35,941 nucleotides of DNA, taken from Smithella sp. Its GTDB lineage: Bacteria > Desulfobacterota > Syntrophia > Syntrophales > Smithellaceae. The translations under genes were made by a program, and so were the position numbers. The stretch spans positions 1 to 35,941 of the forward strand of contig JBDKVD010000292.1 of the NCBI GenBank assembly GCA_039679325.1. Reading direction: 5' to 3'. Position 1 is the stretch's first letter. Every line of letters starts with the position of its first letter. Below, in pieces: positions 2,036-32,702 of this stretch. The notes beneath the pieces were generated by a model. It searched no databases. It saw nothing but the letters and a program-made list of their open reading frames with translations, and was not told the DNA's origin.

Positions 2036-2049
2036 GTTCTTCCTCCTTT

Positions 2050-3340: not shown

Positions 3341-3487
3341 GCAAATAGTCGGCCAATACCCGAAAGATAATCAGAAGTTTTGATTCATCTTTTATAACAG
3401 TAGATTAGATTGGCAGGGGAGAGCGGCAGAAATAGATGAAATGATTTGTTTGGCCTCAATATTTGGTGGAGCCTCAGTATATCGAGG
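3341..3487 (-). promoter_or_regulatory. Sigma54 promoter cassette copy 1
   Basis: Minus-strand TTGGCCGACTATTTGC (3356-3341, GG-N10-GC). IHF-like TAACAGtagaTTA at 3395-3407. Boxes CCTCAATATTTGGTGG (3454-3469) and CCTCAGTATATCGAGG (3472-3487). Confidence 0.85.
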
Positions 3488-3584
3488 GATGGTTGAAATA
3501 TTCGGGAGTCAGTATTGATAAGATTTTTCATTCTGAGCTCTGTCTTCTGAATTCGCAATGCCGTCGGGTTTCAGAAATATTGCT

Positions 3585-4706
3585 TCATGTCATTGTCCCT
3601 ATGGTTTTGCGAAAGCGTGCCAGGGACAGGGAAAACAGGGAGGCCCCGATCACGACAAGGGCGATAAATTGCGGCCAGACGACTGAAAGTCCTGCACCAC
3701 GATACAGGATGGCTTGAGCAAGAATGACGAAATGAGTATTCGGTGCTGCCTGCATCAGGAATTGTATGAATTGGGGCATGCTCTCCCGCGGCGTCATGCC
3801 ACCCGAAAGCATCTGTAACGGCAACAACACCAGCATCAGCAGCAATCCGAATTGAGGCATCGAACGGGCAATCGTACCAAGAAAGATGCCGAGGGACGCG
3901 GTGGCAAACAGGTGCAGAGTGGTGCCGAAAAGAAACAGACCGATTGAACCTTCGATGGGTACCGAAAGCAGCCCCCGGACGACGAAGATCAGCGAAAAGG
4001 TGGTAGCCGCCAGCACAACCAGAGCCATGGCCCAGACCTTGCTCGTCACGATCTCGAAAGGAGTAACCGGCATCGCCAGAAGGTGCTCCACCGTGCCATG
4101 TTCCCGTTCGCGGATCAGCGCTGCTCCGGCAAGGATAATCGACAACATGGTGACGCTGTTGATGACCTGCATTATTGCGCCGAACCACGATTGGTTCAAC
4201 TCGGGATTGAAGCGCGCCCGCAAGGCCAGATCCACCGGAGGTATTGTGTTTGACCGGTAGCCCTGCAGGAAGGTGCTCACCTCACCGCCGATGATGGCCT
4301 GGATGTAACCGCTGCCGGTAAAAGCCTGGCCCATGCGGGTGGCATCGACATTGAGCTGTATCACAGGATTGCGGCCTGCCAGGACATCGCGCTGGAAACC
4401 GGAGGGGATAGTGAGTGCAAAGGTATCGCGGCCGGCGTCCATCCGGGCATCCGCCTCGGACTGGGCGATCAACGCCGGGGGCATGAAATGAGGCGGGTAG
4501 AAGGCGTCGGTAATACGTGTGGAGAGGGGTGATTGATCCTCGTCAATAATGGCGATGGGGGCTTTGTGCAATGTCTCCGGCGTAGCCGTTGCAGCGGTGT
4601 AAACCGAAAACGTAAAAGAATATACAACCAGTACAATCATAATCGGTTCGCGCAGCAGGCTGCGCAATTCTTTAACACCAAGGTGGAGAATATTTGCCGT
4701 GCGCAT
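3585..4706 (-). CDS. yhhJ: ABC-2 type permease (YhhJ-like)
   Basis: LGVKELRSL..., REREHGTVEHLL, ARSMPQFGLL, GGMTPRESMP; multiple TM helices; directly follows rbbA. Confidence 0.88.
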   Translation of the reverse strand: MRTANILHLGVKELRSLLREPIMIVLVVYSFTFSVYTAATATPETLHKAPIAIIDEDQSPLSTRITDAFYPPHFMPPALIAQSEADARMDAGRDTFALTIPSGFQRDVLAGRNPVIQLNVDATRMGQAFTGSGYIQAIIGGEVSTFLQGYRSNTIPPVDLALRARFNPELNQSWFGAIMQVINSVTMLSIILAGAALIREREHGTVEHLLAMPVTPFEIVTSKVWAMALVVLAATTFSLIFVVRGLLSVPIEGSIGLFLFGTTLHLFATASLGIFLGTIARSMPQFGLLLMLVLLPLQMLSGGMTPRESMPQFIQFLMQAAPNTHFVILAQAILYRGAGLSVVWPQFIALVVIGASLFSLSLARFRKTIGTMT

Positions 4707-4708
4707 GT

Positions 4709-7507
4709 TCAGTGCTCCTGTTTTTTGAGCAAGACAGTTCCCAGAGCGATAAGTACGGGTATGGCAATCAATAACGGTACGAAGGAAGAGTAAAGATCAG
4801 ATATGCCGAGCGACTTGGAGAAAGTGCCGCGGGCAATGGTCAGAAAATGGCTTGTCGGATAGTACCTGCCAATCACTGCGCCTGCTCCTTCCAGAGAAGA
4901 AACCGGGTTGATCATTCCGGAAAACTGTACGGCGGGCAGAATGGTCAATAGCACTGTGCCAAACAAAGCGGCGATCTGGCTCTTCATAAAGGTTGAAATC
5001 ACCAAACCGATGGCGGTGGCGGCGATTACATACAGCAAAGCCGCAGCAGCAAGAGTGAGGAAACTGCCTTTGAGCGGTACATCAAACATGAATACCGCTA
5101 ACGCAGTGAGCAGCAGGAAGTTGAGCATTGCCAATGCGATGTAGGGAAGCTGCTTGCCCAACAAAAATTCCAGCCTCGTGACCGGAGTCACATAGAGATT
5201 GACAATAGAACCCAGCTCTTTCTCCCGCACGACCGACAGCGCGGTCAACATGGCCGGGATCAGCATCAGGAGCAGCGGAATCACAGCCGGCACCATGGAC
5301 ACAAGACTCTTGACGTCCGGATTATAACGAAAACGGGTCTCAATGGTCGCCGGGACTGTTAGTGCGGCAGAGCCGATTGTTTGACGCGCCGCGGTTGCCA
5401 GCCACTGTGCGTGTATTCCCTGCGCATAGCCGCGCACCGTTTCTGCCCGCTGTGGCATGGCGCCGTCGATCCAGGCGCCAACGGCAACCGGCGTGCCGCG
5501 TTTCAGGTCTCGGGCGAACCCGGACGGGATTTCGATGGCTAAACTGATCTCGCCTGAACGCATGCGACGATCCATTTCCGCGTAATCGGCAATCGGCGGG
5601 TGCTCGATAAAGTAGCGCGAACCGGAAAGGTTGAGCACATAGTCGCTACTGGTAGTCGTTTGATCGCGGTCGAGCACCGCGAAGGTGAGATTCTCCACAT
5701 CCATGCTGATGCCGTAACCCATCACAAACATCAGTATAGCGCTGCCCAGCATCGCCAGGGTCAGGCGGATCGGATCGCGAAGCAGTTCCAGCGTTTCGCG
5801 CCGGGTATAACTGAATAAGCGGCGTAAACTGAACCAGGCGGTTCGCGCCTCTGGGATCGCGGCGTGTTGTTCGGGAGGCGGTGGGGGGGTGGCAACCGTT
5901 TCGGCGGTTACTGTCGAGGCTCCGGCTGTTTCTTTGGCCAGAGCCTCTTCCAGGTAGCTGATAAAAGCTTCCTCAAGTGAACTGACGCCACGAGCTGCAA
6001 TCAGCGCGGCAGGCGAGTCACTAACCAGCACCCGGCCTGCATGCATGAGTGAGATCCGGTCACATCGTTCCGCCTCGTTCATAAAGTGGGTGGAGATGAA
6101 AATAGTGACCTTATCCTTGCGCGCCAGATCGATCATGATCTGCCAGAAGGCATCGCGCGCCATCGGGTCTACCCCCGATGTCGGCTCGTCGAGAATCAGC
6201 ATTTCCGGACCGTGGATCATCGCCACCGCGAGCGACAATCGCTGACGCTGACCAAGCGGCAGGGCGTCAGGCAGGCTATCCATAACCTCGCTTAAGTAGA
6301 AACGCTGCGCCATCTCTTCCAGACGCGACTCGATGCTCTCTTCCGGCATCTTGAACAAACGTGCGTGCAATACCAGATTCTGCCTGACCGTCAACTCACT
6401 GTAAAGTGAAAACGACTGCGACATATAGCCGACACGCCGGCGCGTATCAAGATCATGCGGATCAACAGGATGACCGAACAGCAGTGCCTGCCCTTCAGTG
6501 GGTGGCAGCAGGCCGGTCAGCATCTTCATGGTGGTGGTCTTGCCACACCCGTTGGATCCCAAAAAACCGAAAATCTCACCTTGCCCGATGCTGAAGCTTA
6601 CATGATCAACGGCGGTGAAATCGCCAAAGCGCATTGTAAGATCATGAGCCTCAATCGCTGTTTCCCCGACGGAGTCAGTCTCGCGGGGGAGGATAACGAC
6701 CGGTTGGTAACCGTCACGCTGAGTCTGCGGCAGCAGGGCGATAAATGCCTCCTCCAGCGTTTCGGCGCCGGTGAGAGTCAGGATCTCCTGCGGGGTGCCC
6801 GTGGCGAGTATGTGTCCGGCATTCATAGCCACGATCCAGTCGAAGCGCGCAGCTTCTTCCATGTAAGCGGTGGCGATGAGCACACTCATGCCGGTTCGCT
6901 CGGAACGAATGTGGTCAATCAGTTCCCAGAACTGCCGCCGCGAGAGCGGATCGACGCCGGTGGTCGGTTCGTCCAGAATCAGCATGTCGGGATCGTGAAT
7001 GAGTGCACAGCACAGGCCGAGTTTCTGCTTCATACCGCCGGAGAGCTTTCCTGCCGGCCTGTCGGTAAAGGGAGCCAGTCCCGTGGCTGTAAGTAACTCA
7101 TTAATACGGCGCTCGCGCTCGTTGCGGCTGTGGCCGAAGAGACTGGCGAAGAAATCAAGATTTTCGGTTACCGACAGCGTTGCGTAGAGATTTTTGCCCA
7201 GCCCCTGCGGCATGTAGGCCACCTGCGGGCAAACAATCCTGCGATGGCGACGGTCGGCGATATTGCCGCCCAAAACTTCGATCCTCCCTGTCTGGATAGC
7301 TCTGGCGCCTGCCAGCAGTGAGAATAGAGTGGACTTGCCCACACCATCCGGGCCGATAAAGCCGACCATGCAGCCTGCGGGCACATCAAGACTAACACCA
7401 TCCAGCGCCAGGGTCTTCCTGCCATAGCGTTGACTGACATCATGCAGCCGGGCCACAGACTGCAACACAGGCAGTGCAAGACCGGTTGCGGAATTATGTT
7501 CACTCAT
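4709..7507 (-). CDS. rbbA: Dual ABC ATPase-permease fusion (RbbA/YhiH)
   Basis: Two Walker A motifs ([16 protein letters not shown]), LSGGMKQK, two LDEPT motifs and a C-terminal ABC-2 membrane domain. ATG 7507 overlaps the upstream stop (ATGA). Confidence 0.9.
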
Positions 7508-8628
7508 AGTTGTGGTTTCACCTGCAGATGGGCCGGCCACTCTACTTTGGAATTCAGCCTTATATAGGCCACGCCGGGCAGTCCGGTTTTGACCTGAGTG
7601 ATATGCCTTTTGAGCAAATCCGGAGGAATCTGCGCCCGGACGCGGAACATTAACTTTTGGCGTTCACTGGCCGTCTCCACTGTTTTCGGAGTGAACTGGG
7701 CTACATCGGACACAAACGACACCTTCGCCGGAATCACATATTCAGGAGCCGCGTCCAGCACCATACGTACCTCAGTGCCTAATGCAACCCTTCCGACCAC
7801 GGCTGTAGGCAGGAAAAAGGTCATATAGACATCGCTCAGATCAACCAGACTCAACACCCGGCCACCGGCGCCGACCACTTCGCCGGGCTGAACGACCCGG
7901 TACTGCACCCGCCCTTCACGAGGTGACGTAAGCGAGCTGTCTTTTATATTGGCCCCAATACGTTCGATAGTTGCCTGCACGGCTTCAACAGCCGACTGCG
8001 CGCCGGCAATACCGGCACGCGCCGTCACGACGGCCGCGGCGGAGGCGGCAAGCTGGGCGCGAGCCGCACTGACGGCGGCAACGGCACTATGGACCCTCGC
8101 GCTGTCATCATCAGCCTCCTGTTGCGACGTCGCCGCTTCAGCCGCCAGGGTTAAGGAGCGAAACGCGCGCTTCCGGGCAACACCCAGTTCGGCCTCGCGT
8201 TGCCCGACTACCGCCTGCGTTGCTGTTTTTTCGCTTTCGCGCTGAACCAATTGACTGCGCGCCGTTTCAACCCCGCTCTGCGCTTGTTTCAATTGCGCTT
8301 CGGCCTGCCGGCGCTCGGCTTCCAGGACTTCGGTATCCAGCAAGGCTACTACTTGTCCGGCGGAAACCAACTCCCCTTCACGGACCAGAATATCCTTTAC
8401 CCGACCGGGTGTCCTGGCGGCGATGTCAATCTCCACTGCTTCAATGCGTCCATTGCCGCTTACAAGACCTTTGTTTTTGTCAGCACTGCCCAATATTTGC
8501 CAGGCCGTTATACCCAGGCCGGCAAGAATCAGCACCACTGCGGCCGCAATCACCCATTTCTTCTTCAGTTGTTTGATGATGGTTTTTTCAGGCCCGGATG
8601 TGGCTTCAGGCTCAGGCTCGTTGGTCAT
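7504..8628 (-). CDS. HlyD-family periplasmic adaptor (YhiI-like)
   Basis: N-terminal TM helix, SGNGRIEA, Ala-rich coiled coil, [20 protein letters not shown]. Confidence 0.9.
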
Positions 8629-8672
8629 CGTCCTCTCTCCATAGCTTCATGGCGCATGCAACGCCCTTTGAG

Positions 8673-10088
8673 TTATTGTGCCCTATGTGCAACACTACCA
8701 CCGCCCAGCGCAGCATAGAGGTTTACGCTACTTGCCAGTAGCGCCCTTCGTAACTGGACCAATGCTTGTTCGGTGACAAACCGGTCGCGCTCGGCATCGA
8801 GTACCTCCAGGTAAGGCACCGCACCGTTTTGATAACGCAACCCGGCCAGACGTGTACGTTCTATTTGTGCAGCAAGGGTTGCCTGCTGAGCGGCAACCTG
8901 CAAAGTGAGCCAGCGACGCTCGGCCAGCGCATCGGCAACTTCGCGGAAAGCCCCCTGAATTGTTCGTTCATAGTCGGCTACAGCCAGATTGCGACGTGCT
9001 TCCGAAACATCAAGATTAGCGAGATTGCGGCCGCCATCAAAAATCGGCAGGGTCACACTCGGCGCAAAACGCCAGATGCCGCTGTCTGCACCAAACAGAC
9101 CGCTGAGCGCGACGCTGGCAGTGCCCAGGTCGCCGGTCAACATGATGCGCGGTAAAAAGGCTGCACGGGCGGCGCCGATGTTGGCATTGGCTGCCTTCAA
9201 CTGATGCTCGGCAGCGAGAATATCCGGACGGTTAATCAGCAAATCCGAGGGCAGTCCTGCAGAAATTTCCTGCACAAAGCCCCGTTCGATCATAGACAGC
9301 GGCTGGTTCTCAGAAGCAACGATGGGAGCGCCGACCAGAAGTGTAAGCGCATTGTGGTTTTGATCCCGCTGGCGCATTAAGGCCGCCCGGTCGGCACTCG
9401 CCTGATTCAAGAGCGTTTCAGCCTGAACTGCATCCAGCTTGGATGAATATCCTACCTCGTATCGCCGGCGCGCAATGCGATAAGAGTCCTCACGACCGGT
9501 AAGGGTCATCTGTGCAATGATTATTCGCTCGTCGAGTTCCCGTTCCAGAAGATAAATATTGGCAACGTGTGCTACCAGGCTGATGACTATTGCACGCTGT
9601 GCTTCTTCAGTTGCCAGGTACTTCTCCAGCGCTGCCGCCGTGAGGTTGCGCACCCGGCCCCAGAAATCCAGTTCCCACAAACTGAGATTCAGGGTAACCT
9701 GGTATTGCTCTGAAGTGATAGAGCTCCCGGTTGGTGAGAGATCGGCCGGCACCCGCGACCGGCTTCCCCTTGCGTCAACACTGATGTTGGGTAACAGGTC
9801 AGCGCGCTGGATACCATAGAGGCCACGGACCTCTTCCACTCGCTGTACCGCAATTCGCAGATCGCGGTTGTTCTCGAGCGCCTGAGCGATCAGTTCCTGG
9901 AGCCTGGCATCTGTGAAGAATTCGCGCCAGCCAAGTTGCAAAGCATCCTGCGTGGTCTTCTTTTGTGCTAAGTTCACTCCCGGATAAGCCGCCGCTGTGG
10001 GCAGTGAAGGCCGCTCATAGGAAGGGGCCAGCGAACATCCGGCTAAAATGGTAATAAGTGCTCCCAACAACATGTTTCGCAGGTTCAT
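8673..10088 (-). CDS. NodT/OprM-family outer-membrane efflux lipoprotein
   Basis: Lipobox LAGC-SLAP, ALENNRDLR, WELDFWGR, RPDILAAE, LYAALGGG. Confidence 0.9.
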   Translation of the reverse strand: MNLRNMLLGALITILAGCSLAPSYERPSLPTAAAYPGVNLAQKKTTQDALQLGWREFFTDARLQELIAQALENNRDLRIAVQRVEEVRGLYGIQRADLLPNISVDARGSRSRVPADLSPTGSSITSEQYQVTLNLSLWELDFWGRVRNLTAAALEKYLATEEAQRAIVISLVAHVANIYLLERELDERIIIAQMTLTGREDSYRIARRRYEVGYSSKLDAVQAETLLNQASADRAALMRQRDQNHNALTLLVGAPIVASENQPLSMIERGFVQEISAGLPSDLLINRPDILAAEHQLKAANANIGAARAAFLPRIMLTGDLGTASVALSGLFGADSGIWRFAPSVTLPIFDGGRNLANLDVSEARRNLAVADYERTIQGAFREVADALAERRWLTLQVAAQQATLAAQIERTRLAGLRYQNGAVPYLEVLDAERDRFVTEQALVQLRRALLASSVNLYAALGGGSVAHRAQ

Positions 10089-10294: not shown

Positions 10295-11185
10295 TTAACG
10301 TTCGATGACGATCTCAACGCGGCGGTTGTTGGCGCGCCCCTCGGCTGATGCGTTGTCGGCAATCGGGCTGCCTTCGCCCTTTCCTCGTGCCTGGATGCGG
10401 TCGGCAGGATAGCCTTTACGCACGATGTAATCGCGGACAGATTCGGCCCGGCGTTGCGAAAGAGCCTGGTTATATGAATCGGAGCCACGGGAATCGGTGT
10501 GCCCCTCCACAATTATGTTGCGCTCGCGGATCGTCAGCAACGCATCGGTTACCTGGTCAAGCTTTACCCTGGCCGAGGGCAACAAGGTCGACTGGGCAGA
10601 CCGAAACAGAATGCTCCCGGAGAGTGTGACGACTAATCCTCGTTTCTCCTCCTTGACTGCGGCAAGCGCGGCAAGTGCGGCCATAGCATCGGCTTCCGCT
10701 TTTTCCTTGCTTTCCCTGACCGCAGCGAGCTCAGCAGCAGATTTTTTCTCGCTTGCTTTAACTGCGTCAAGCTTGTCAATTTCGGCCTGCGCGGCGGTTG
10801 TCCGCTTTTCGGAGTCTCTTAAGTCCTGCTTCCCCTTCTTCACGATCTGGGTTTGTTTCTTCTGAAAATCGGCTTCCGCTTTTTCCTTGCTGCCCTTGTC
10901 GGCAATCATAGCGCCACGCGCTCCCGCCAGTTCAGCCTTGCGCTGGGCGGCATAAGCGAGATCTTTTGTTTTATACGAGTCAGGGTCATTCCGGAATGAT
11001 TCTTCTGCCAGAAGGAGCGCCTCATTCGCCTTGTGTAATTCCGCAGGCGCGAGTTGCTCCGCCGGTCCCTCGCTCGCAATCCGGTAAGCAGAACGAGCGT
11101 CGACGAGTTCCTTTGGCGGCACGCTTGCGCAGCCGGTGAAGAACGCAACCATTGTGAGTAGAATAAAGAATTGCTTCGTTTTCAT
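10295..11185 (-). CDS. DUF4398 + OmpA-like peptidoglycan-binding lipoprotein
   Basis: Lipobox FTGC, helical Ala/Glu/Lys region, VEGHTDSRG...NQALSQRRAESV...GRANNRRVEI. RBS GGAGG before ATG 11185. Confidence 0.88.
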   Translation of the reverse strand: MKTKQFFILLTMVAFFTGCASVPPKELVDARSAYRIASEGPAEQLAPAELHKANEALLLAEESFRNDPDSYKTKDLAYAAQRKAELAGARGAMIADKGSKEKAEADFQKKQTQIVKKGKQDLRDSEKRTTAAQAEIDKLDAVKASEKKSAAELAAVRESKEKAEADAMAALAALAAVKEEKRGLVVTLSGSILFRSAQSTLLPSARVKLDQVTDALLTIRERNIIVEGHTDSRGSDSYNQALSQRRAESVRDYIVRKGYPADRIQARGKGEGSPIADNASAEGRANNRRVEIVIER

Positions 11186-11224
11186 GAAATCCTCCTTGGG
11201 TGTCACGATTGAGTTATAGTCAGG

Positions 11225-11593
11225 TTATGGGTTGTCTTGCCGAAGTTGGCGCACACGCTCTATTGCTGCCAGGGCTTCCGCCTTTTCTGCATCCCCGCGG
11301 GATAGAGCGACAGCCAGCTCGGCGTCGGCTTCAGCCCGCAACAGCATTGATGCGGCCTTTTCCTTATCGCCTTTTGCGGCCAGTTCCTTGGCTAGTTCCA
11401 GTTCCTCCCTGGCTAATTGTAAATGAAGCGAGGCTTGCGGAACTTTGGCCGCCCCGGCCTCCTCTGCGGCGCGGATTCCCGACGTAGTTGCCTCTGTTGT
11501 GCGCAGCGGGGCGCTCGCGCATCCCGCGATAATTGCTGTGGCCACGACAGCTCCGGCACAAACCATAAATCTGATCTTGGATAAGTGTCTCAT
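11225..11593 (-). CDS. DUF4398-type lipoprotein
   Basis: Lipobox IAGC, IRAAEEAGA...LQLAREEL...RAEADAELA; the usual partner upstream of OmpA. Confidence 0.8.
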   Translation of the reverse strand: MRHLSKIRFMVCAGAVVATAIIAGCASAPLRTTEATTSGIRAAEEAGAAKVPQASLHLQLAREELELAKELAAKGDKEKAASMLLRAEADAELAVALSRGDAEKAEALAAIERVRQLRQDNP

Positions 11594-11738
11594 TTAGTCC
11601 TCCTTTTATATTTGGATAAGTGGTTGCCTCATTGGATCTTCCTTTTTTCTTTCAACCATGTCGCTTCACCTCTTGTTATCTCGCAACTTCTTGATAATAC
11701 TTAATATAGGCAGTATCATGCTTCTGCCTACCGCCTTA

Positions 11739-11933
11739 TTAACTCTTTGTTCTTCGGACGTTGATGCTCTGACCTGATCTCATCAATTGACGGTTCGTCA
11801 GAATCACCGGGTCAACAATCTCCCCGCAGATCAGGCATTTCCATCCCCAAAACTGTTCATGGGAACCGTAAAAATTGACATAGGCTAAGGTACCCCCGCA
11901 ACGAGGACATTTACTGAAAAGCGATTTATCCAT
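11739..11933 (-). CDS. Small CxxC...CxxC (Zn-ribbon-like) protein, 64 aa
   Basis: CPRCGG...GWKCLICGEIVDPVILTNR. The start overlaps the ABM stop (TAATG) and has RBS AGGAG. Confidence 0.78.
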   Translation of the reverse strand: MDKSLFSKCPRCGGTLAYVNFYGSHEQFWGWKCLICGEIVDPVILTNRQLMRSGQSINVRRTKS

Positions 11934-12238
11934 TAAATCTCCTTTATTCCCACCGGGTGGGAAACGTTATAGAATGTTTTTTCGTAAGGCTCTTTAAGCA
12001 GGTTCATCGCACCTCTGATGACCTTATAATGCTTCGACTTCAGGTGGGCATTAAGGTTTTCCTCAATATCCCATTCTTCAAGAAGAAAAAGTTGGTTTTC
12101 ATCTTCCATGCTCTGACAGAAGTCGTAGCGCAGACATCCTTTCGCCATCCTTGTGATACCGGACAGAGAATCAATCGTCTGTGACAACTCCCTGCGCTTC
12201 TCAGAAATGACATTCATTCGTGTGATTACAAGAATCAT
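11933..12238 (-). CDS. ABM-domain protein (putative quinol monooxygenase)
   Basis: GCLRYDF...LFLLEEW...LNAHLKSKHY. Start moved to ATG 12238 because the ORF-track extension runs through the sigma54 promoter. Confidence 0.82.
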   Translation of the reverse strand: MILVITRMNVISEKRRELSQTIDSLSGITRMAKGCLRYDFCQSMEDENQLFLLEEWDIEENLNAHLKSKHYKVIRGAMNLLKEPYEKTFYNVSHPVGIKEI

Positions 12239-12286
12239 ATAGATGGCCCTCATTTGAATGATTAAAATTATTATATCAATATAACA

Positions 12287-12434
12287 GCAAGTAATCGGCC
12301 AAAAGCCGAAGGAGCGCCAGAATATTGGATTTATCATTTAACAACAGGTGCTTAGGTTAACAGGAGAGATAAGAAGTGCCATATAAAATAATTCATTCGG
12401 CCTCAATATTTAGTGGAGCCACAATATTTAGTGG
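12287..12434 (-). promoter_or_regulatory. Sigma54 promoter cassette copy 2
   Basis: TTGGCCGATTACTTGC (12302-12287). IHF-like CAACAGgtgcTTA at 12342-12354. Boxes CCTCAATATTTAGTGG (12401-12416) and CCACAATATTTAGTGG (12419-12434). Confidence 0.85.
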
Positions 12435-12549
12435 GATTAGTTGAAAGGTCTGCCGAGGGCCGAGGGGCAGGGGTGGCTTGGGCAAGCGCCGGGAACGCTA
12501 TTATCACATGGAGTATCTTCGTTAGTTCATTCCGCGCTTTTGACAGCCT

Positions 12550-12987
12550 TCACGAGGTTTTCTCTTTGTCAACAGCTGCTTTCTTGGGGAGATTGTCATC
12601 GACAAGTTTATAAAATAGTTCGACGTAATGTTTATCTCCGAATGTAGGGATACTGGTGATGACGGTAGTGACGCTCTTTTTGAGTCGTATGATATCGATG
12701 TGCATAGGAATATTTCCCTTTGTCTCCAGAGAATATTTTTTCTTTGGTACGGAGTTTGTTAACGTTGCTTCAATTTTCAGCTGGTCGGAAGCTTGCATCA
12801 CTGCCTTGTAGGTCGTTTCGAGATCAAAGGCATAATATTTTGTCGCTTTGCCGCTTTTCCAGAAAACATAACCTTCATAGGCGGATCCCATAGTGGGAAG
12901 AAAAGGTATAAGCGGAATTATAGCGCATCCTGATAACAAAGAGGCTACTAAAAACAGAGCAAGACGTGTTAATATTTTATTTCTCAT
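12550..12987 (-). CDS. Hypothetical lipoprotein (DUF3568-like)
   Basis: Lipobox LSGC, RBS AGGA; FGD...ELF near the C-terminus resembles DUF3568. Confidence 0.6.
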   Translation of the reverse strand: MRNKILTRLALFLVASLLSGCAIIPLIPFLPTMGSAYEGYVFWKSGKATKYYAFDLETTYKAVMQASDQLKIEATLTNSVPKKKYSLETKGNIPMHIDIIRLKKSVTTVITSIPTFGDKHYVELFYKLVDDNLPKKAAVDKEKTS

Positions 12988-13004
12988 GACTTTTCCTTTT
13001 TTGC

Positions 13005-13325
13005 TCAGAGGCTGTCAGCGCCACGCCACTCGACAGCGCCGAACCCGGCTTCGCCAAGGAATGTGTAAACGAGGCTGACGGTTCCCGTCGTCTGGTGGGA
13101 GTCGGCCCGGTCGGGATAGTGCGCATCCCGGAGAGACGCGATATATTGGATTCCGAGGGCGTGACGGCCGAAAATACGATAGGTGAATCCCATGTTCATA
13201 CGGTCGATATTCTCCATTCCCCCCGGATCATCGCCACCCACGCCAGTCAGATAATACGCGCGTCCTGTTAAGTGGAACATGGCCCTGTCGCCCAGGATGA
13301 GGCGGAGCGCGAGGAGCCCCTGCAT
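13005..13325 (-). pseudogene. C-terminal fragment of an outer-membrane beta-strand protein (DUF3943-protein-like)
   Basis: No signal peptide; amphipathic beta pattern. QGLLALRLILGDRAM...HALGIQY...SLVYTFLG...FGAVEWR resembles, from memory, the C-terminus of longer DUF3943-containing proteins. Confidence 0.5.
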
Positions 13326-13332
13326 CCTTGTT

Positions 13333-13674
13333 TCAGTTGTCTTGTTTCATGCACGATTTCAATTTACCGTCGAGGTAGAAAGAAATTAGACCATCTGCCT
13401 TGCAGTTATTATTTCCTATGGTAACTGACTCATAGAGCACACAAGATTCTAATTTATTGTTGCTATAAAAACTAACAAAACCACCATTTTTACAGCGGAT
13501 GTTATTTGCATCGTAATCATTTTTGAGTTGGCAAGATTTCAGTGATCCATTGTTATGAAGAACAACATTTGTGCCTGAGTTACAAATTGACTGGTCAGCG
13601 GCGAATACATTATGACTCACGAATATTGATGCTAGTGCTATGCTCCAGAAAAAACCAATCTTTAGGATTTTCAT
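13333..13674 (-). CDS. Secreted Cys-repeat hypothetical protein
   Basis: Signal peptide (VFA-A), three ~30-aa repeats C..G...(F/L)(Y/H)..GxLKSC, RBS AGGAG, visibly AT-rich. Confidence 0.75.
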   Translation of the reverse strand: MKILKIGFFWSIALASIFVSHNVFAADQSICNSGTNVVLHNNGSLKSCQLKNDYDANNIRCKNGGFVSFYSNNKLESCVLYESVTIGNNNCKADGLISFYLDGKLKSCMKQDN

Positions 13675-13748
13675 AATATATTGTCTCCTTTATTTTCTGA
13701 TTTTCGATCATCCGGACTCAGTTATTAAGTTTTGAGCCGATTGAGATG

Positions 13749-14321
13749 TCAAAAAGATTCTTCCCCAGACACTACCTTCTTCTCTATCAAGTCACCCAGT
13801 AGCTTTAGCTGCTCCTTCTGGATTACCAATAGTTCTTCCCACTGGCCTTCTCTCAATAAGTCCATTTTCTCGTGCAGCAGCATGATTTCGAGTTCGGCTT
13901 TCAGATTGACCTCATAATCATGTTCGGCATGAAGTCGGTCTTTTTCCGACTGCCTGTTTTGCGACATCAAGATTATGGGCGCCTGAACGGCGGCCAGCAT
14001 TGAAAGGAACAGATTGAGTAAAATATAAGGGTAAGGATCAAAAGTTTTGTCGTAATTAAGAAGGATGAACGAATTCAAACCAACCCAGATGACCAGGGTA
14101 GCGGTAAAGATAGCTATGAATGTCCAGGAACCACCGAAAGTCGCAACCGCATCCGCTGCTCGCTGTCCAAAAGTTGTCTTTGCATCAAATTCCTTTGAGG
14201 TGTCTCTGGAAATATGCTTTCGCCCTGCAATATGACGGGCGACATTCTTGTTGCGCTCGTCCAATTTTTCAAAGGGCATGCCAAAATATTTCTTTGCAAT
14301 GTCATCAGGTTTTTGCATCAT
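13749..14321 (-). CDS. DUF1003 membrane protein
   Basis: TFGQRAADAVATFGGSWTF, FDPYPYILLNL, QAPIILMSQNRQ, DYEVNLKAELEI. Confidence 0.9.
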   Translation of the reverse strand: MMQKPDDIAKKYFGMPFEKLDERNKNVARHIAGRKHISRDTSKEFDAKTTFGQRAADAVATFGGSWTFIAIFTATLVIWVGLNSFILLNYDKTFDPYPYILLNLFLSMLAAVQAPIILMSQNRQSEKDRLHAEHDYEVNLKAELEIMLLHEKMDLLREGQWEELLVIQKEQLKLLGDLIEKKVVSGEESF

Positions 14322-14377
14322 GTCTCCAGATGATCACACTTTTTTTGATGGCATACACTGCAAGCTACATTTTTCAT
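14318..14377 (-). CDS. 19-aa Cys-rich ORF coupled to DUF1003 (leader peptide or gene remnant)
   Basis: MKNVACSVCHQKKCDHLET* with RBS CAGGAG. The stop overlaps the DUF1003 start (ATGA). First ORF after promoter copy 3. Confidence 0.4.
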   Translation of the reverse strand: MKNVACSVCHQKKCDHLET

Positions 14378-14437
14378 TGTTTTTCTCCTGTTTAAAATAA
14401 TCGTTTATATTATGACCGTGATGATAGCCATAACATA

Positions 14438-14584
14438 GCAAAGTGTCTGCCAACAGCCGAAGAAAAATAAACAGTTTGGATTAATCCTTTAATAACGGAA
14501 GTTTAAATTAACAGGAGAGGGAGCGGAAAAATATATAATGATTTTTTTGGCCTCCATATTTGGTGAACCATCAGGATATGGAGG
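14438..14584 (-). promoter_or_regulatory. Sigma54 promoter cassette copy 3
   Basis: TTGGCAGACACTTTGC (14453-14438). IHF-like TAACGGaagtTTA at 14493-14505. Boxes CCTCCATATTTGGTGA (14551-14566) and CATCAGGATATGGAGG (14569-14584). Confidence 0.8.
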
Positions 14585-14855
14585 GGCGAAAAGAAATCTT
14601 TGATTTTGGGGACGAGCCGGCATATGGGAAGTTATTGAAATCTAACAAGTAGCCGCATAACCCAAATCACAATAAGGAAAATAACCAACCTCTAACTGCG
14701 GATCAAAATTCGTTGAATTTTTCCTGGACATTGGTATATCTACCGAAGCCATTAATATTTTTTTTCTTCAGGTCCTTTTATAACTCCCATCGCCACCACC
14801 TCCACCGCTAATCCATGTAATTATTATTCTTCTTATGAATGACATTAAAACTTCT

Positions 14856-27967: not shown

Positions 27968-29070
27968 TCTTCTAATTTCCGCATCATTCGTTTTGCTAAG
28001 CGAAATGCCTTCAATTTTAATTGCTCTCCACGACCAAACCAGATTGAATTCAATCGCGTGGTTTCATCTTCATTCAACATCATGTGGTCCGTGTATTCGG
28101 CGACACTGTTGAAAGCCCCCCATAACGTCCCGTGCGCCAGATGTGCTCCATGGCCGGAATCATGCAACTTAAGCACGCTGTTTCTGATCTGCTGTGTTCT
28201 TGCAGTATTCTCCGCCTCTTCGTTCTCCGGAACCAGTGCCTGCACATAATCCCGCAGTTGCACATCAGTGATTTTTCTGGCCGCCATGCTGTTGAACATA
28301 ATATCGAGTTGCCTATATAAGGAATCCGCCCACCCGAGCATTGCGACTGGTTGTTTCAAATCCCTTACCGTGTTTTGTGTATGACCGATTTGGACTTCTC
28401 CCGTTCCCTGTAATGCCGACGTTAAAGTATTATTGCAGACGACACGGATGGGCGTAAGCTTCACTCGAACATGTGAGCTGCCGTCATGACTATTTGTGAG
28501 CAGGAGATATTTGTTGACAATGTCGTTGCCATTGACATTAATGTAACCAGAAAGTCTCGCCAGAATCCAGATACATTCACCACAACCCAGTGCGCCGGCC
28601 GTTTCGTATATTGCTTCGCCGCTACCGACCAGGGTATCGAAGAATGTGAAGGCATCGATGTTCTGAACGGGTTCGTAACTCTCGTTGACGAAGCCCATAA
28701 CTTCATCGGTATCCGTTCGCACCATTGCATATGCATCCTGCTTTAACCCCGTTTTCAACTTCAACGGCTTCTTTATGACGGTATAATCCAACCCGGCCAT
28801 TTCTATGGCCTCACTCGCGGTCTTAGGGTGATTCAACTCGATTCCCACATTATGCCACGGTGCCGGTAATGATTCAGGATATGGAGAAAGAGTTTGCGGC
28901 ACCGGCATGTGCAGTCTGCGTAACGTCGCCTCACTCACTGTAGATTGATACAATGGATGATCGGGAGTAGTGATATTAAAGAGTGGAAAAATTTCTCCGG
29001 AAATTTTTTCCTGCCACCCAATGAAATTTGCGTCCGGGTCCGAACCAGTTGAATTTATGTGTTTAAACAT
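27964..29070 (-). CDS. DUF932-type (phage/plasmid-associated) protein with an extra N-terminal domain
   Basis: PWHxxG, YEPVQNxDAFxFFD, ETAGALxxG, YLLLTNSHDGS, TPIRVVCNNTL, GTLWGAFNSVAEYTDH, LKLKAF. RBS GGAGG before ATG 29070. The stop overlaps the cgs start. Confidence 0.8.
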   Translation of the reverse strand: MFKHINSTGSDPDANFIGWQEKISGEIFPLFNITTPDHPLYQSTVSEATLRRLHMPVPQTLSPYPESLPAPWHNVGIELNHPKTASEAIEMAGLDYTVIKKPLKLKTGLKQDAYAMVRTDTDEVMGFVNESYEPVQNIDAFTFFDTLVGSGEAIYETAGALGCGECIWILARLSGYINVNGNDIVNKYLLLTNSHDGSSHVRVKLTPIRVVCNNTLTSALQGTGEVQIGHTQNTVRDLKQPVAMLGWADSLYRQLDIMFNSMAARKITDVQLRDYVQALVPENEEAENTARTQQIRNSVLKLHDSGHGAHLAHGTLWGAFNSVAEYTDHMMLNEDETTRLNSIWFGRGEQLKLKAFRLAKRMMRKLEE

Positions 29071-29087
29071 ATTAGCCTCCGTCAGCA

Positions 29088-29465
29088 TCAATCCTTATAT
29101 GTTGTTATCCGCCCAGGGCAGATGTTCACAACTGCCGAACAGTTACAGCCTTGTTTATCAGGAAGAAAATATTCGGTAACTTTCTTGTAGTCATCATTAG
29201 CCTTCGCTTTAAAATCTTCCTGTTGATATTCTATATTATTTTTTCTCGTGTTTTTCTCCTTTGTCTCTTTCTCTTTACCGCCTGTCTTCCCCGGAGTGTT
29301 TACCTCATGAATCTGGCGTGGTTGAGACTGCGTCCCGGCCTCTCGCGGCTGCCCCGGTTCTGATGAAGTCCTTCGGCTGCTCTCATAGATTGTGTCCAAC
29401 TTCGGGGAGGCAGTCGCCTGAGTCCCTGAATGATCCTGATCAACATTCCAACTTATTCCGATCAA
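29088..29465 (-). CDS. Hydrophilic hypothetical ORF, possibly degraded
   Basis: Open frame filling the gap, but a TTG start without a clear RBS and low complexity. Confidence 0.3.
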   Translation of the reverse strand: MIGISWNVDQDHSGTQATASPKLDTIYESSRRTSSEPGQPREAGTQSQPRQIHEVNTPGKTGGKEKETKEKNTRKNNIEYQQEDFKAKANDDYKKVTEYFLPDKQGCNCSAVVNICPGRITTYKD

Positions 29466-29525
29466 TAGAAATTTGTTCTTTCTTAAACGGCTTCGTATAT
29501 TCGAATGACTATCAACACGTACTGC

Positions 29526-29561
29526 TCAGCCTCGCCGCCCAATGCAGAACGGCGAGGCTGA
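29526..29561. other. Perfect 12-bp stem-loop downstream of triple-BON gene 2
   Basis: TCAGCCTCGCCG-12 nt-CGGCGAGGCTGA. Confidence 0.6.
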
Positions 29562-29573
29562 AAACTTTTTGGC

Positions 29574-30347
29574 CTACTCGATGGTCATTTTGTTATTTAC
29601 GCTCTTCACACCATTTATATCATTGGCGAGTTTGGTGGTCAGATCCCTTTCGGCTGCATTACCGGCCTTGCCATATAACGTGACTACACCTTTTTCCGTT
29701 TTGACTTTGGTATTGATGGTGCTGGTGGAGCGATGGAACAGCAGCGTCATCTTAACCTGGGCGGTAATGGAAGCGTCATCAATATCTGTGCCTACGCCTG
29801 TTTTTGCGGTTTTTGCGGGCTTGGACACTACTGTCATCTCATTATTTACGTCTTTGACTCCTTCAACATCTCTGGCGTATTCAGTTGCCAATTCCTTCTG
29901 TGCCTGACTTGCAGCCACGCCTTGCAGGGTGACGATGCCTTCTTTGACTTTAACTTCAGTTTTCGTGGCGCTTACGCTCCGATGGAACAAGAGCGTGGTT
30001 GTTACTTTTGCACTGAGCCATGCATCTGAATATGGGGTGGGGGAAGCACTTTTGAGTTCCAGCCTGTTATCGACACTTTCGACACCGGGCAGGTCCATCA
30101 CGGTCTCATAAGCCAATGATTTATGGAATTCATTCAAGACTGTTCCCGTCAAGGTGACGACGCCGTCTTTGGAGTGAATTTTAATATCATCGTCACTGAG
30201 GTAAGTTTTGAATACATATGACTTCCTGGCCGATGATTCGATGCGGTCATCGGTCTTGGACGCGTAGACAGGCATACTGGTCGTAAACATAGCGACCACA
30301 GCCACCATCATAACTAGAACTGCAAAATACATTGTTTTTGTTTTCAT
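29574..30347 (-). CDS. Secreted triple-BON-domain protein, paralog of 2296-3054
   Basis: Shares RIESxARxSYVFKT, TLLFHRSVS, DDASITAQVKMTLL and the C-terminal MTIE with copy 1. Confidence 0.9.
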   Translation of the reverse strand: MKTKTMYFAVLVMMVAVVAMFTTSMPVYASKTDDRIESSARKSYVFKTYLSDDDIKIHSKDGVVTLTGTVLNEFHKSLAYETVMDLPGVESVDNRLELKSASPTPYSDAWLSAKVTTTLLFHRSVSATKTEVKVKEGIVTLQGVAASQAQKELATEYARDVEGVKDVNNEMTVVSKPAKTAKTGVGTDIDDASITAQVKMTLLFHRSTSTINTKVKTEKGVVTLYGKAGNAAERDLTTKLANDINGVKSVNNKMTIE

Positions 30348-30511
30348 TTTTATTCCTCATTATTTTATGTTGCGTTTTGGACTCTTTAAAGGAAACAGCC
30401 TGAATCCGGGTGCGAGTAGGTCATGTCGAAATATTTTCTTTGGAGATCAGAGAATCTTCAATTGCTGTTTCCACTTTACTTGCCTCAATCTTTCCCCCGT
30501 ATACAACATGC

Positions 30512-30691
30512 CTACTTTTCCAGTACCTTCTCTAATTCGCCGAGCTTTTTTTGAACACTGCCTTCTGTCTTTTCGACTTTGCCTTCAATTTCCAGTTCGG
30601 AATTGTCGCTGAGTTTCCCGGCGACTTCCTTAATTTTACCCTTCACTTCATGGAATTTGCCCTTCGCCTTATCTTTCGTACTTCGTTTCAT
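30512..30691 (-). CDS. CsbD-family protein, 59 aa
   Basis: Manually translated MKRSTKDKAKGKFHEVKGKIKEVAGKLSDNSELEIEGKVEKTEGSVQKKLGELEKVLEK. RBS AGGAGG. Confidence 0.88.
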   Translation of the reverse strand: MKRSTKDKAKGKFHEVKGKIKEVAGKLSDNSELEIEGKVEKTEGSVQKKLGELEKVLEK

Positions 30692-30736
30692 TGTCTCCTC
30701 CTTTTGAGGTTGTGATTTTCAGAGGTTAACGGTCTC

Positions 30737-31060
30737 CTATTTCACGACCAGATTATTATTAACCGATTTGACCGATTTGACGCTCCTTGCGATTTCACCA
30801 GCTTTATCAACGGCCTTTTGAGAATTAACGAAGCCGCTCAGTTGAACAACGCCCTTGTAGGTTTCAACACTGATCTCGAATGACTTGAGAAAATCATCAT
30901 CGGCCAGCAGAGATTTCACCTTGGTGGTTATGACCGAATCGTCAACATATTCACCCGTGCTTTCATGTGTGCGTGTCGCTCCGCAGGCAGCTATGGCGGC
31001 AAAGGCGGCGATCAGTATAAGAAGCACCAGATAGCGGATAATGACGCTCATTTTTTTCAT
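30737..31060 (-). CDS. Single-BON lipoprotein (OsmY-like)
   Basis: Lipobox IAAC, STGEYVDDSVITTKVK, ETYKGVVQLSGFV. RBS AGGAGG before ATG 31060. Confidence 0.9.
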   Translation of the reverse strand: MKKMSVIIRYLVLLILIAAFAAIAACGATRTHESTGEYVDDSVITTKVKSLLADDDFLKSFEISVETYKGVVQLSGFVNSQKAVDKAGEIARSVKSVKSVNNNLVVK

Positions 31061-31196
31061 GGTAGTTATTCCTCCTGTAAATTTGATTGTTAAAGGGTTC
31101 ATCACGAGATCTTTTCTGCCCCGGCAAAATAATTCTGGAATATGCCGGCTAATTCCTTTCCAAATGCTTCATGTACTTCTGCTAATGTTCCCATGG

Positions 31197-31346
31197 CTAC
31201 AATGGCTTTCGTCCCTGAATAATCCGAATCAGCACCACGACGATGGCGATGACCAGCAGCAAGTGAATGAATCCGCCAATAGTGTAGCCGCTGATCAATC
31301 CCAGAAGCCACAAAACAATGAGAATAACAAATATGGTCCAAAGCAT
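31197..31346 (-). CDS. lmo0937-family small membrane protein, 49 aa
   Basis: MLWTIFVILIVLWLLGLISGYTIGGFIHLLLVIAIVVVLIRIIQGRKPL. RBS AAGGAGG. Confidence 0.85.
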   Translation of the reverse strand: MLWTIFVILIVLWLLGLISGYTIGGFIHLLLVIAIVVVLIRIIQGRKPL

Positions 31347-31442
31347 TTCTCCTCCTTAATATGTTTATTTAATAAATATTTTTATTCCCAAAACTATTTT
31401 GGGGAACCATAAAACTTATCAATGAACATGCTGATCATAAGT

Positions 31443-31591
31443 GCAAATGGCCTGCCAACAAATGGGAAACAAACAGATGCTCAAAATTATCATTTAATAT
31501 AGTGGTTTAGATCGAGAGGAGATAATAACAGGAGAACATGGAATGACTGGTTTGCCCACAATATTTGGTGGAACCCCACCCGATATTGTGG
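31443..31591 (-). promoter_or_regulatory. Sigma54 promoter cassette copy 4
   Basis: TTGGCAGGCCATTTGC (31458-31443). IHF-like segment at 31497-31509 (weaker match). Boxes CCACAATATTTGGTGG (31556-31571) and CCACCCGATATTGTGG (31576-31591). Confidence 0.85.
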
Positions 31592-31758
31592 GGTAGCTGA
31601 GGGATGGAGACAGCTTAATATTGCTCCCATATCTCTCCCGGACTACCTATTCCGAGCTTATGCATTCTCATTTCCAATGTGCATGATAAAGGTGCTATTG
31701 CTGATTTACTTTTTTATATCTGCGGGCGCGCGGGATTTTTTTACAAGGCATTATGTAT

Positions 31759-31960
31759 GACGACCTCGTAAAAAGGCCGGATGCTGCGTTGCGCTTCATC
31801 CCTCCCCGTGTCAAGCACGGGGCAGGCTACCTGCGGCGTACGTCAGGTACGCCTCATTCCTCGGTATTCGCGCGCCTTGCCTGCGACCTCGCGTGCCCTT
31901 CAGGGTATTTTACGAGGTCGTCTGAGAATTGTTAATTTCACGACTTTTTACGAGTCCATC
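31759..31960. mobile_element. ~202-bp MITE-like element with ATGTAT target-site duplication
   Basis: GACGACCTCGTAAAAAG (31759-31775) and CTTTTTACGAGTCCATC (31944-31960) are 14/17 inverted. A second, perfect 15-bp inverted copy lies at 31908-31922. ATGTAT is at 31753-31758 and 31961-31966. Confidence 0.75.
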
Positions 31961-32107
31961 ATGTATAATAACTTCCCGTCTAATAATAATCAGCAGGAGG
32001 AAAATCACTGCTGCAATTAAAATATGGATGAATGAACCCAACGTATGGTCGATTATCAAACCTATACACCAGAAAGTAGACAGTAAAACAATAATTGTCC
32101 ACAGCAT
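31910..32107 (-). CDS. Divergent lmo0937-family protein with MITE-derived C-terminus
   Basis: MLWTII...LGSFIHILI; RBS AGGAGG. The last 16 residues (DGLVKS...) are read from the inserted element. Confidence 0.7.
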   Translation of the reverse strand: MLWTIIVLLSTFWCIGLIIDHTLGSFIHILIAAVIFLLLIIIRREVIIHDGLVKSREINNSQTTS

Positions 32108-32262
32108 ATGATCCTCCTTTACGAATTTATTTAAATCTTATCGCCGGTAGCCGTCTGGAGCGACAAAATTCTCCCTCAGATATTTTTATCAATACCATCG
32201 ACTTAAGGGCTGTAATATCAAGATAAAGAATTAGAGATAACGAGCTTGGCTTTGCCCATAGA

Positions 32263-32439
32263 TCAAGGTGTGCTTCCCGGTATTTTCTGACGATATTCCG
32301 CAGGCATTTCCAATAATTGGACTGTGCCTTGTGATTTATCCTCAATATTGCGTGAATCGTTCCGGAGATGATTGGCAAAAAAGTTTTCGATACGAGTCTG
32401 CAGTTGTTGCCATTCTTGATCTGTGTTACTTGGAGACAT
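32263..32439 (-). CDS. Small hypothetical protein (58 aa), paralog of 15686-15865
   Basis: MSPSNTDQEWQQLQTRIENFFANHLRNDSRNIEDKSQGTVQLLEMPAEYRQKIPGSTP. RBS GGGAGG. First ORF after promoter copy 5. Confidence 0.7.
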   Translation of the reverse strand: MSPSNTDQEWQQLQTRIENFFANHLRNDSRNIEDKSQGTVQLLEMPAEYRQKIPGSTP

Positions 32440-32556
32440 ATCTATTCCTCCCTAAGTGAGTTGGTACAATATCAAAGACGAAACCATGAAATAGTCCGCC
32501 ATCAGGATTAACCAGCTGCATCTAAACATAATTCCGGGTACAATTTTTTAGTATTT

Positions 32557-32702
32557 GCAAGTGACTTGCCAAATATCAAAAATAAACTAAATTCCAGATT
32601 AATCATTTAATAACAAGTAATTAGATCAATAGCAGGGAATAATGGAAAAGCATAAAGAAATTATTTGACCTTAATATTTGGTGGAGCCTCAATATGCTGA
32701 GG
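32557..32702 (-). promoter_or_regulatory. Sigma54 promoter cassette copy 5
   Basis: TTGGCAAGTCACTTGC (32572-32557). IHF-like TAACAAgtaaTTA at 32611-32623. Boxes CCTTAATATTTGGTGG (32669-32684) and CCTCAATATGCTGAGG (32687-32702). Confidence 0.85.

Follow-up and report, generated by a model that had tools for sequence, protein, structure and literature searches.

The sigma-54 promoters Pu, nifH, glnHp2 and pspA, driven by XylR, NifA, NtrC and PspF, respectively, are enhancer-dependent and assisted by IHF. General stress regulons are under the control of sigma-B in Firmicutes, RpoS in Gammaproteobacteria and EcfG/PhyR in Alphaproteobacteria, and we know of no general-stress master regulator for the syntrophic and metal- or sulfate-reducing Desulfobacterota. 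Here we describe a promoter module that occurs five times in a stretch of 35,941 nt from Smithella sp. (in the following the window; contig JBDKVD010000292.1 of assembly GCA_039679325.1, which comprises 2.34 Mb in 295 contigs with a completeness of 94.9). Judged from sequence comparison, we consider it probable that the five sites are complete sigma-54 promoters of the enhancer-dependent type, approximately 165 bp each, that they are homologous copies of one module, that an activator encoded on contig C141 of the same genome is the most likely driver, and that non-homologous genes of stress type are in this way placed under one switch.

With the classical promoters the module has in common a GG-N10-GC core, tandem sites located more than 100 bp upstream and an A/T-rich bendable region, and its candidate activator resembles theirs in being an NtrC-family AAA+ protein with GAFTGA and a Fis-type helix-turn-helix (HTH). 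In the classical systems, however, only short binding sites are shared between promoters, whereas here the entire 165 bp are homologous across unrelated genes and orders and the spacing is fixed to approximately 1-2 bp in 163 copies; the role of IHF is unproven. The difference from the classical layout is that the entire promoter, and not the sites alone, is the conserved homologous unit that is reused across orders. The nearest published concept that we found is that of putative mobile promoters (Nijveen, Matus-Garcia and van Passel 2012, PMC3575422), described there as sequences that are identical to 80% or more over a minimum of 50 nt before non-homologous genes, mostly as pairs of unknown function. 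As in those, non-homologous genes share homologous sequence upstream, inside one taxon as well as across taxa, and no known mobile element is attached to it. Compared with those families, ours stands out by its recognisable mechanism, by the regulator linked to it and by a membership in the hundreds, and 80% identity in a 50-column window is attained by 22 of the 55 pairs of copies in the genome, always over the upstream activator sites (UAS), with a whole-module identity of 59-76%.

In a first-pass annotation of the window, five minus-strand GG-N10-GC sites had been placed at 3341, 12287, 14438, 31443 and 32557, and a pattern search for TGGC-N7-TTGC reproduced these positions exactly. The pattern occurs nine times in the window compared with 1.61 times expected, a number attained in none of 100 shuffles; all five of these minus-strand sites are module-bearing, while the remaining four matches (4028 and 11114 and 27935 on the plus strand, 10902 on the minus strand) lie outside any module. 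The five sites can be aligned over approximately 165 bp upstream, and the likeness drops right past the TTGC. A scan of the genome with a profile, as the first-pass annotation had proposed, was performed with nhmmer: the profile of the five recovers the window copies at E values of 3e-44 to 7e-36 and finds six extra full-length copies on contigs C154, C206, C67 (two), C141 and C58 at E 9e-32 to 4e-22. This makes a total of 11 full-length modules in the genome, with the first hit beyond them at E 1.2. From the TTGC to the start codon of the first long open reading frame (ORF) it is 38, 49, 117, 97 and 118 bp for modules 1 to 5, in agreement with the 38-118 bp given before. The sigma-54 architecture claimed for the sites also finds its counterpart in the genome, which has one rpoN gene (a 503-aa frame on C30, Sigma54_DBD 223.6 bits) and approximately 16 genes with a sigma-54 interaction domain. 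The modules of the window are the following.

3336..3505, minus strand: module 1, with UAS-A at 3472-3487, UAS-B at 3454-3469 and A/T block at 3382-3399; nhmmer E 3.4e-44.
3341-3355, minus strand: -24/-12 element of module 1, TGGCCGACTATTTGC.
12282..12452, minus strand: module 2, with UAS-A at 12419-12434, UAS-B at 12401-12416, A/T block at 12328-12346 and -24/-12 element at 12287-12301; nhmmer E 2.3e-42.
14433..14602, minus strand: module 3, with UAS-A at 14569-14584, UAS-B at 14551-14566, A/T block at 14479-14497 and -24/-12 element at 14438-14452; nhmmer E 3.1e-40.
31438..31609, minus strand: module 4, with UAS-A at 31574-31591 (2 bp longer), UAS-B at 31556-31571, A/T block at 31484-31501 and -24/-12 element at 31443-31457; nhmmer E 2.6e-38.
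32552..32721, minus strand: module 5, with UAS-A at 32687-32702, UAS-B at 32669-32684, A/T block at 32597-32615 and -24/-12 element at 32557-32571; nhmmer E 6.7e-36.

The anatomy of the module was determined from a reference set of 163 unique full-length copies from the window genome, its relatives and contigs of public metagenome-assembled genomes (MAGs), the public copies being mostly labelled Syntrophaceae, Smithella or Deltaproteobacteria. The best-conserved columns of this set are two palindromes, a pyrimidine block (TCTCTCCT), TCTAA, the A/T block (GTTATTAAA) and the TGGC...TTGC element, in which TGGC and TGC rank at the top of the 163 copies and do not vary among the 11 copies of the genome; almost all spacer columns hold some information as well. 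A purine-rich block reported earlier corresponds to the reverse complement of the pyrimidine block, which is conserved on the promoter strand. The two palindromes, UAS-A and UAS-B, are 16 bp long and of the type CCTCA-N6-TGAGG, with their centres 18 bp apart in 160 of the 163 copies. The distance from the UAS-B centre is 67 bp to the A/T block (123/163) and 109-110 bp to the GG (129/163; range 101-112), and that from the A/T block to the GG is 42-43 bp in 146/163. For the 11 copies of the genome the values are 18-20 bp between the two UAS, 108-110 bp from UAS-B to the GG and 42-43 bp from the A/T block to the GG. In the five window copies the end of UAS-B is 101, 102, 101, 101 and 100 bp and the A/T block 42-43 bp from the GG; the tandem boxes had been described at 100, 101, 100, 100 and 99 bp, the gap of one bp being a matter of counting convention, and a predicted pair of activator sites upstream, held at constant distance from the -24/-12 element, is borne out in the large set too.

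Transcription from sigma-54 promoters starts approximately 12 nt after the GC, and with a start presumed at this point the module is predicted to span approximately -165 to -5, with the two UAS centred at approximately -152 and -134 and the A/T block at approximately -67. Conservation upstream of UAS-A is gone within approximately 12 nt, and a check of conservation in this upstream flank revealed no third palindrome. Since the likeness ends there at one side and just after the -12 element at the other, its extent fits a promoter and not a transcribed element. A structured RNA element was considered as a candidate and rejected: an Rfam scan of the window returned no family, and RNAalifold, applied to the 11 copies, paired nothing but one UAS palindrome with the other (covariation term -0.21).

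For the A/T block an IHF-like core had been proposed, but this part of the earlier description is not established. Matches to the E. coli IHF consensus WATCAANNNNTTR that deviate from it at no more than one position are found in 90/163 spacers compared with 27/163 shuffled ones, but they are spread over three positions (40, 26 and 25 copies). There are four genes of the HU/IHF family (Bac_DNA_binding) in the genome, two of which match best as IHF-beta and two as HU-beta, all of them under the curated cut-offs. A bend at the A/T block appears plausible, while IHF itself is unproven as its cause.

One of the six extra copies, that on C141, follows directly upon a gene for a putative sigma-54 activator of 919 aa. 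According to Pfam the protein contains four PAS domains, Sigma54_activat (234 bits), AAA_lid_14 and HTH_8, and GAFTGA is present in its translation; it did not reach any NCBIfam equivalog cut-off. The stop codon of the gene is at 7831 and the profile match of the module starts at 7875-7879, approximately 45 bp on. The recurrence of this arrangement was followed in public data by searching one genome per species for a pattern of the palindrome pair, which gave at least 117 stretches, a sample that is selected for the UAS and hence biased. Most of them come from MAGs labelled Syntrophaceae, Smithella, Syntrophus and 'Deltaproteobacteria', and further labels among the listed stretches are Geobacteraceae, Desulfuromonadales, Desulfobulbaceae, Desulfobacteraceae, Desulfatiglandales, Desulfatibacillum and Syntrophorhabdus. 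The profile has 152 hits in the listed stretches, spread over 114 of the 117 loci, and 139 of these hits are full length, so the rest of the module accompanies the palindromes. Directly upstream of 33 of the 139 modules, 121 of which could be assessed, there is a same-strand match to the last 74 residues of the activator (66-83% identity, in one case 41%), and in 27 of these 33 adjacent cases the domain match ends 22-35 bp before the module. In these loci the DNA-binding domain is conserved at 66-83% while the sensor domains vary. We regard the PAS-AAA+-HTH protein of C141 as most likely the activator of the module.

A sister group of shorter activators, with a DNA-binding domain 47-63% identical, was seen in loci L058 (1434-1469), L051 (1501-1756), L057, L059, L060 and L063-L065. 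Their genes are immediately followed by a near-identical palindrome pair without the conserved spacer, and at L051 two divergent sigma-54-like promoters have one common UAS.

Distribution was quantified in 151 genomes sampled evenly from the order to which the window belongs. The module is present in 31 of them (25 of the 117 high-quality genomes, 23 of the 63 genera) with 1-16 copies each. With the whole 919-aa protein as query, relatives gave hits to paralogues through their common AAA+/HTH part alone, and orthologues at contig ends escaped; these were recovered with the last 89 aa as query; this domain is matched at E 1e-20 or better in 26/151 genomes. Both module and domain occur in 21 genomes, the domain only in 5, the module only in 10 and neither in 115, and among the 27 domain matches of at least 65% identity 18 have a module on the same strand within the next 54 bp. 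In a phylum-wide sample, full-length modules were found in 6 of 149 other genomes. Two loci, L071 and L112, have full-length modules on contigs of 2.1-2.6 kb from MAGs labelled Nitrososphaerota and Bacillota; these contigs are probably mis-binned and do not represent a true occurrence outside Desulfobacterota. On single contigs the modules form clusters, five in 30 kb in the window, 12 hits in 56 kb in genome G078, 10 in 44 kb in G152 and 11 in 42 kb in G159. A match to the DNA-binding domain lies inside the G078 cluster and inside or within approximately 7 kb of the G152 cluster, and none was found in G159. Clustering together with the patchy distribution suggests that the modules lie in islands that are gained and lost.

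In the mechanism that we propose, dimers of one dedicated activator would bind the two adjacent 16-bp palindromes (-152 and -134) and assemble an ATPase ring. The A/T-rich block near -67 would bend the DNA, either intrinsically or by means of an IHF/HU-type protein, and the bend would bring the ring to the sigma-54 RNA polymerase at the -24 GG/-12 GC, resulting in opening of the promoter. The 11 modules would place non-homologous envelope, osmotic and general-stress genes under one switch, whose members would have been recruited by copying of the whole promoter or by placement of genes behind an existing copy and not by evolution of new sites. Purifying selection would then have kept all copies near one consensus.

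The first-pass annotation had suggested from the constant spacing and similar spacers that the whole promoter was duplicated as a unit. Descent as a unit stands: module matches score approximately 80-150 bits over the whole 165 bp, and from these comparisons we regard it as secure that all copies are homologous and descended from one promoter unit. Duplication within this genome, in contrast, finds no support, and constant spacing and similar spacers cannot serve as its sign, as the spacer identity among the 11 copies is 48-74% with a mean of 60% (approximately 31% expected from composition) compared with 61% between these copies and foreign ones. Copying has thus been neither recent nor local. 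In a FastTree phylogeny of the 163 copies over 171 columns, from which 15 of 178 unique rows were excluded as non-full-length, there is no grouping by first gene (41 changes for ABM compared with 44.4 when shuffled), the 11 copies of the genome are ungrouped (11 compared with 10.7), and grouping by genome label is weak (124 compared with 147), so that no order of duplication can be derived. The module is thus an old and strongly constrained unit that is common to several orders, and its copying is lineage-wide.

Traces of the process are found upstream of 18 of the 163 modules, where the C-terminal coding part of the activator gene survives as a 5'-truncated remnant of 14-61 aa, located at the position of the real stop. 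The other 145 modules have the full domain (31), are cut by the end of the locus (2) or have nothing there (112), and the genes behind the 18 remnant modules are ABM (7), CsbD (2), the gene found downstream on C141 (1) and others (8). Locus L095 (1632-5645, minus strand) contains in succession an activator, a module, ABM, a 97-aa ORF and a 30-aa remnant, then another module followed by a paralogue of ABM whose tail is CsbD-like and by a zinc-ribbon protein; since a complete unit is here followed by remnant, module and ABM paralogue, that event copied the gene as well. In the congener G003, 91% identity to C141 extends from 47 bp inside the 3' end of the activator gene through the module and into the downstream gene, and the upstream neighbour is by eye DnaB-type helicase-like. 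We take the remnants as direct traces of copying or rearrangement, although deletion in situ of a second activator copy could give the same result, and this evidence comes from other genomes and not from the five window copies.

The order of genes on C141 is P-type ATPase, kaiC, kaiB, kaiB, activator and module, and the module is probably switched on by one activator that is encoded beside clock-like kaiBC genes. KaiC has two KaiC stretches (371.8 bits) and the two KaiB proteins score 91 and 89 bits in Pfam; the closest solved relative of the KaiC is chain 8dba_A (675 bits), which we take to be a purple-bacterial KaiC with an extended C-terminus. No KaiA was detected in the assembly, whose completeness is 94.9%. 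The system resembles the KaiA-less KaiBC systems outside cyanobacteria in its double-domain KaiC, its KaiB and the lack of a detected KaiA, but differs from them in having two kaiB genes and in an operon that closes with a sigma-54 activator and not with a histidine kinase. In the listed public loci kaiB precedes 8 of 19 complete activator genes, and an N-terminal module of coiled coil plus PAS, 46-54% identical to residues 1-215 of the C141 protein, is present in 8/8 kaiB-linked activators and 0/11 of the others, which fits a Kai-specific input domain. Upstream of kaiC no sigma-54 element was found in the intergenic region 2275-2598 of C141; one-mismatch sigma-54 hits on this contig number 9, which is at chance level. 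A complex prediction for KaiB, KaiB and residues 1-190 of the activator, made with 10-row alignments, scored 0.02 compared with a mark of 0.32 and is neutral on binding.

Several observations speak against assigning all modules to one Kai-linked activator and a stress response. Adjacency proves only one target beside the activator gene, not binding of all copies, and the genomes of the sample are interrelated so that the two-by-two table overstates independence. Ten module-bearing genomes of the order sample have no domain match, including G159 with 13 copies at a completeness of 100; only partial domain matches of 62 aa, in short frames, were obtained for two more, G100 and G104, and none at E 1e-5 for G018 (3 copies, completeness 100) and G024 (2 copies). 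Furthermore, the label 'stress' is grounded in names of Pfam families, the IHF consensus has no fixed position and no HU/IHF gene reaches a curated IHF cut-off, and with only 8 of 19 activators linked to kaiB the KaiBC link is confined to a subfamily. Some of the missing domains may be explained by assembly, if it is assumed that the activator gene breaks assemblies and hides in other MAGs: in the congeners G001 (C62 and C47) and G008 (C105 and C9) the gene is cut by contig ends beside a module, and two contigs in each genome carry a copy of its 3' end.

Taken at face value, the ten of 31 module-bearing genomes of the order sample without a domain match, the lack of one in G018 and G024 as well, and the approximately 16 sigma-54 activators of the genome would favour sigma-54 promoters that are driven by another activator, the C141 PAS activator being located by chance upstream of a target that is its own or that of another regulator. 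We consider this unlikely in view of the stop-to-module arrangement in 33 of 139 listed public copies and at 18 of 27 domain matches of the order sample, the 115 of 120 module-free genomes that are also domain-free, the remnants of the 3' end of this very gene that accompany copies, and a DNA-binding domain that is conserved next to variable sensor domains. Convergence of non-homologous promoters on a layout required by activator, bend and sigma-54 is in our opinion very improbable. The equal spacer identity within (60%) and between genomes (61%) and a tree ungrouped by genome or target gene are as expected if selection alone fixes the sequence, but full-length matches of approximately 80-150 bits and the remnants upstream of 18 copies and at the G003 locus stand against it, and a spacer identity of approximately 60% where approximately 31% is expected is too much information for an independent origin before each gene. 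We attach hardly any probability to the copies being a selfish or structural intergenic repeat, in the manner of miniature inverted-repeat transposable elements (MITE) or repetitive extragenic palindromes (REP), with incidental promoter motifs. It is true that the element occurs in several copies, lies between genes, keeps a constant length and is patchy among genomes, and an orientation test with ORFs of at least 60 aa did not discriminate (downstream 121/137, on the divergent side also 88/137, in a chance open frame 24). A repeat of this kind is at odds with consensus ends that are complementary at 5 of 30 positions and so form no terminal inverted repeats, with the low copy number (1-16 per genome), with the same families behind the same end (ABM 42, BON 21, CsbD 14 in the listed loci), with palindromes and GG/GC element as the best-conserved columns, and with the tight linkage to one activator gene. 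We retain the reading of the copies as one homologous sigma-54 promoter module with the C141 protein as its most likely activator.

The genes behind the modules of the window, with families from Pfam, are listed here.

1577..3303, minus strand: genes behind module 1, CsbD 3124-3303, 3xBON 2296-3054, DUF5670 2050-2199 and Usp 1577-2035.
10295..12238, minus strand: genes behind module 2, ABM-domain protein 11933-12238, 64-aa zinc-ribbon-like protein 11739-11933, DUF4398 11225-11593 and DUF4398-OmpA 10295-11206.
12550..14376, minus strand: genes behind module 3, 19-codon Cys-rich ORF 14317-14376 (by sequence reading), DUF1003 13749-14321, secreted 113-aa protein 13333-13674, 106-aa ORF 13005-13325 and DUF3568 lipoprotein 12550-12987.
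29574..31346, minus strand: genes behind module 4, DUF5670 31197-31346, BON 30737-31105, CsbD 30512-30691 and 3xBON 29574-30347.
19208-29465, minus strand: possible run-on from module 4, 124-aa ORF, DUF932 27964-29091 and 2918-aa GH94 glucan-synthase-like gene 19208-27967.
31910..32439, minus strand: genes behind module 5, family-less 58-aa protein 32263-32439 and DUF5670 31910-32107 (Pfam and ORFs).

Elsewhere in the genome the modules precede CsbD with a PRC-barrel protein, a collagen-repeat lipoprotein, DUF488 followed by ETF genes, and family-less proteins. ABM is the first gene after 52 of the 163 modules. In the listed public loci, the 139 full-length modules are repeatedly followed by ABM (42 proteins, 38 of them encoded by the first gene), BON (21) and CsbD (14); among the lesser groups are YtxH, LTXXQ, Band_7, DUF3309, DUF932, Ysc84, an ice-binding-like protein and a sigma-70-family factor. 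By the names of these families the targets would be of envelope, osmotic and general-stress type. In three loci (cluster 24), namely L075 (1535-2401, minus strand) and two others, the gene next to the module encodes the sigma-70-family factor, which comprises regions 1.2, 2 and 4; this hints that the sigma-54 switch may feed into a cascade of sigma factors.

Strand and spacing suggest co-transcription of the operons, for example behind module 1. The strand of module 4 runs on to the GH94 gene with no terminator detected by a scan that did no better than chance: over 14000-33000, sigma-70 promoters and terminators were called at 21 and 19 sites compared with 28.8 and 18.7 expected, and operons could not be delimited in this way. 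The 2918-aa protein has two GH94 domains and a glucoamylase-like domain and by this domain composition looks like a cyclic beta-1,2-glucan synthase; an overlap of 4 bp joins its gene to the DUF932 gene and a 124-aa ORF, the three share their strand with module 4, and DUF932 is the first gene behind a module in three listed public loci (cluster 19). Behind module 3, the 19-codon ORF (14317-14376, minus strand) has three Cys residues in a CxxC...C spacing and its own Shine-Dalgarno sequence, and its TGA overlaps the ATG of DUF1003, which suggests translational coupling or a leader peptide. The proteins encoded at 32263-32439 and 15686-15865 (minus strand) are paralogues of 58-59 aa with no Pfam or NCBIfam family, and homologues of them adjoin modules in relatives (L038 and L050).

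Between the module-driven operons, an efflux cluster of ABC transporter, HlyD and outer-membrane factor (3585-10088, minus strand) has a GC content of 0.56-0.58 compared with 0.46 for the genome and may be a separate acquisition. An Fe/Mn superoxide dismutase, a DJ-1/PfpI protein and a phosphoglucomutase (16126-19136, minus strand) are located between the glucan-synthase-like gene and module 3 without a module of their own. The entire window reads as a stress and osmoprotection island. Contigs of the sediment RNA library X17 that are at least 90% alike cover BON (2603-2922), CsbD (3125-3303), OmpA/DUF4398 (10313-11428) and ABM (11964-12192); the nearly complete lack of such cover over the efflux genes (3585-8754) was counted as no evidence. 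As these are assembled contigs, in which neither starts nor levels are visible and DNA may be present, they are at most a weak hint that the module genes are expressed.

The kinds of target, CsbD, YtxH, BON/OsmY-like, Usp and small membrane proteins, are those of the sigma-B, RpoS and EcfG regulons, with the difference that a predicted sigma-54 promoter and one enhancer-binding protein would here take the place of an alternative sigma-70-family factor, the function being read from family names. Among the papers listed by our literature search, none links KaiB/KaiC with a sigma-54 activator or reports a sigma-54 CsbD/BON stress regulon in Deltaproteobacteria. Term searches of PMC4641369, PMC2725144 and PMC12316311 returned no such regulon outside their supplementary regulon tables, where an earlier listing is possible. 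If our interpretation is true, the module belongs to a general stress circuit of these anaerobic bacteria for which we found no earlier description. A more far-reaching proposal is tentative and in our own estimate rather doubtful: a KaiA-less KaiC-KaiB-KaiB timer or energy sensor might, via the N-terminal module of the activator, govern the general stress response in Syntrophales as well as in some further Desulfobacterota, with a regulon that grows by copy-and-paste from the promoter downstream of the activator, and with the regulator and 5-16 module operons often located in islands of 40-55 kb that are gained or lost between genera.

As a natural example of an entire enhancer-dependent promoter serving as a reusable part, the module is unusually clear; this bears on how genes are recruited into regulons, and the fixed geometry of the module provides a ready-made spacing experiment for DNA looping. 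The operon of kaiBC and activator, if true, would be a direct transcriptional output for non-cyanobacterial Kai systems. For the Desulfobacterota, the one activator, the one 16-bp site and the defined list of targets make up a testable candidate for a stress regulator.

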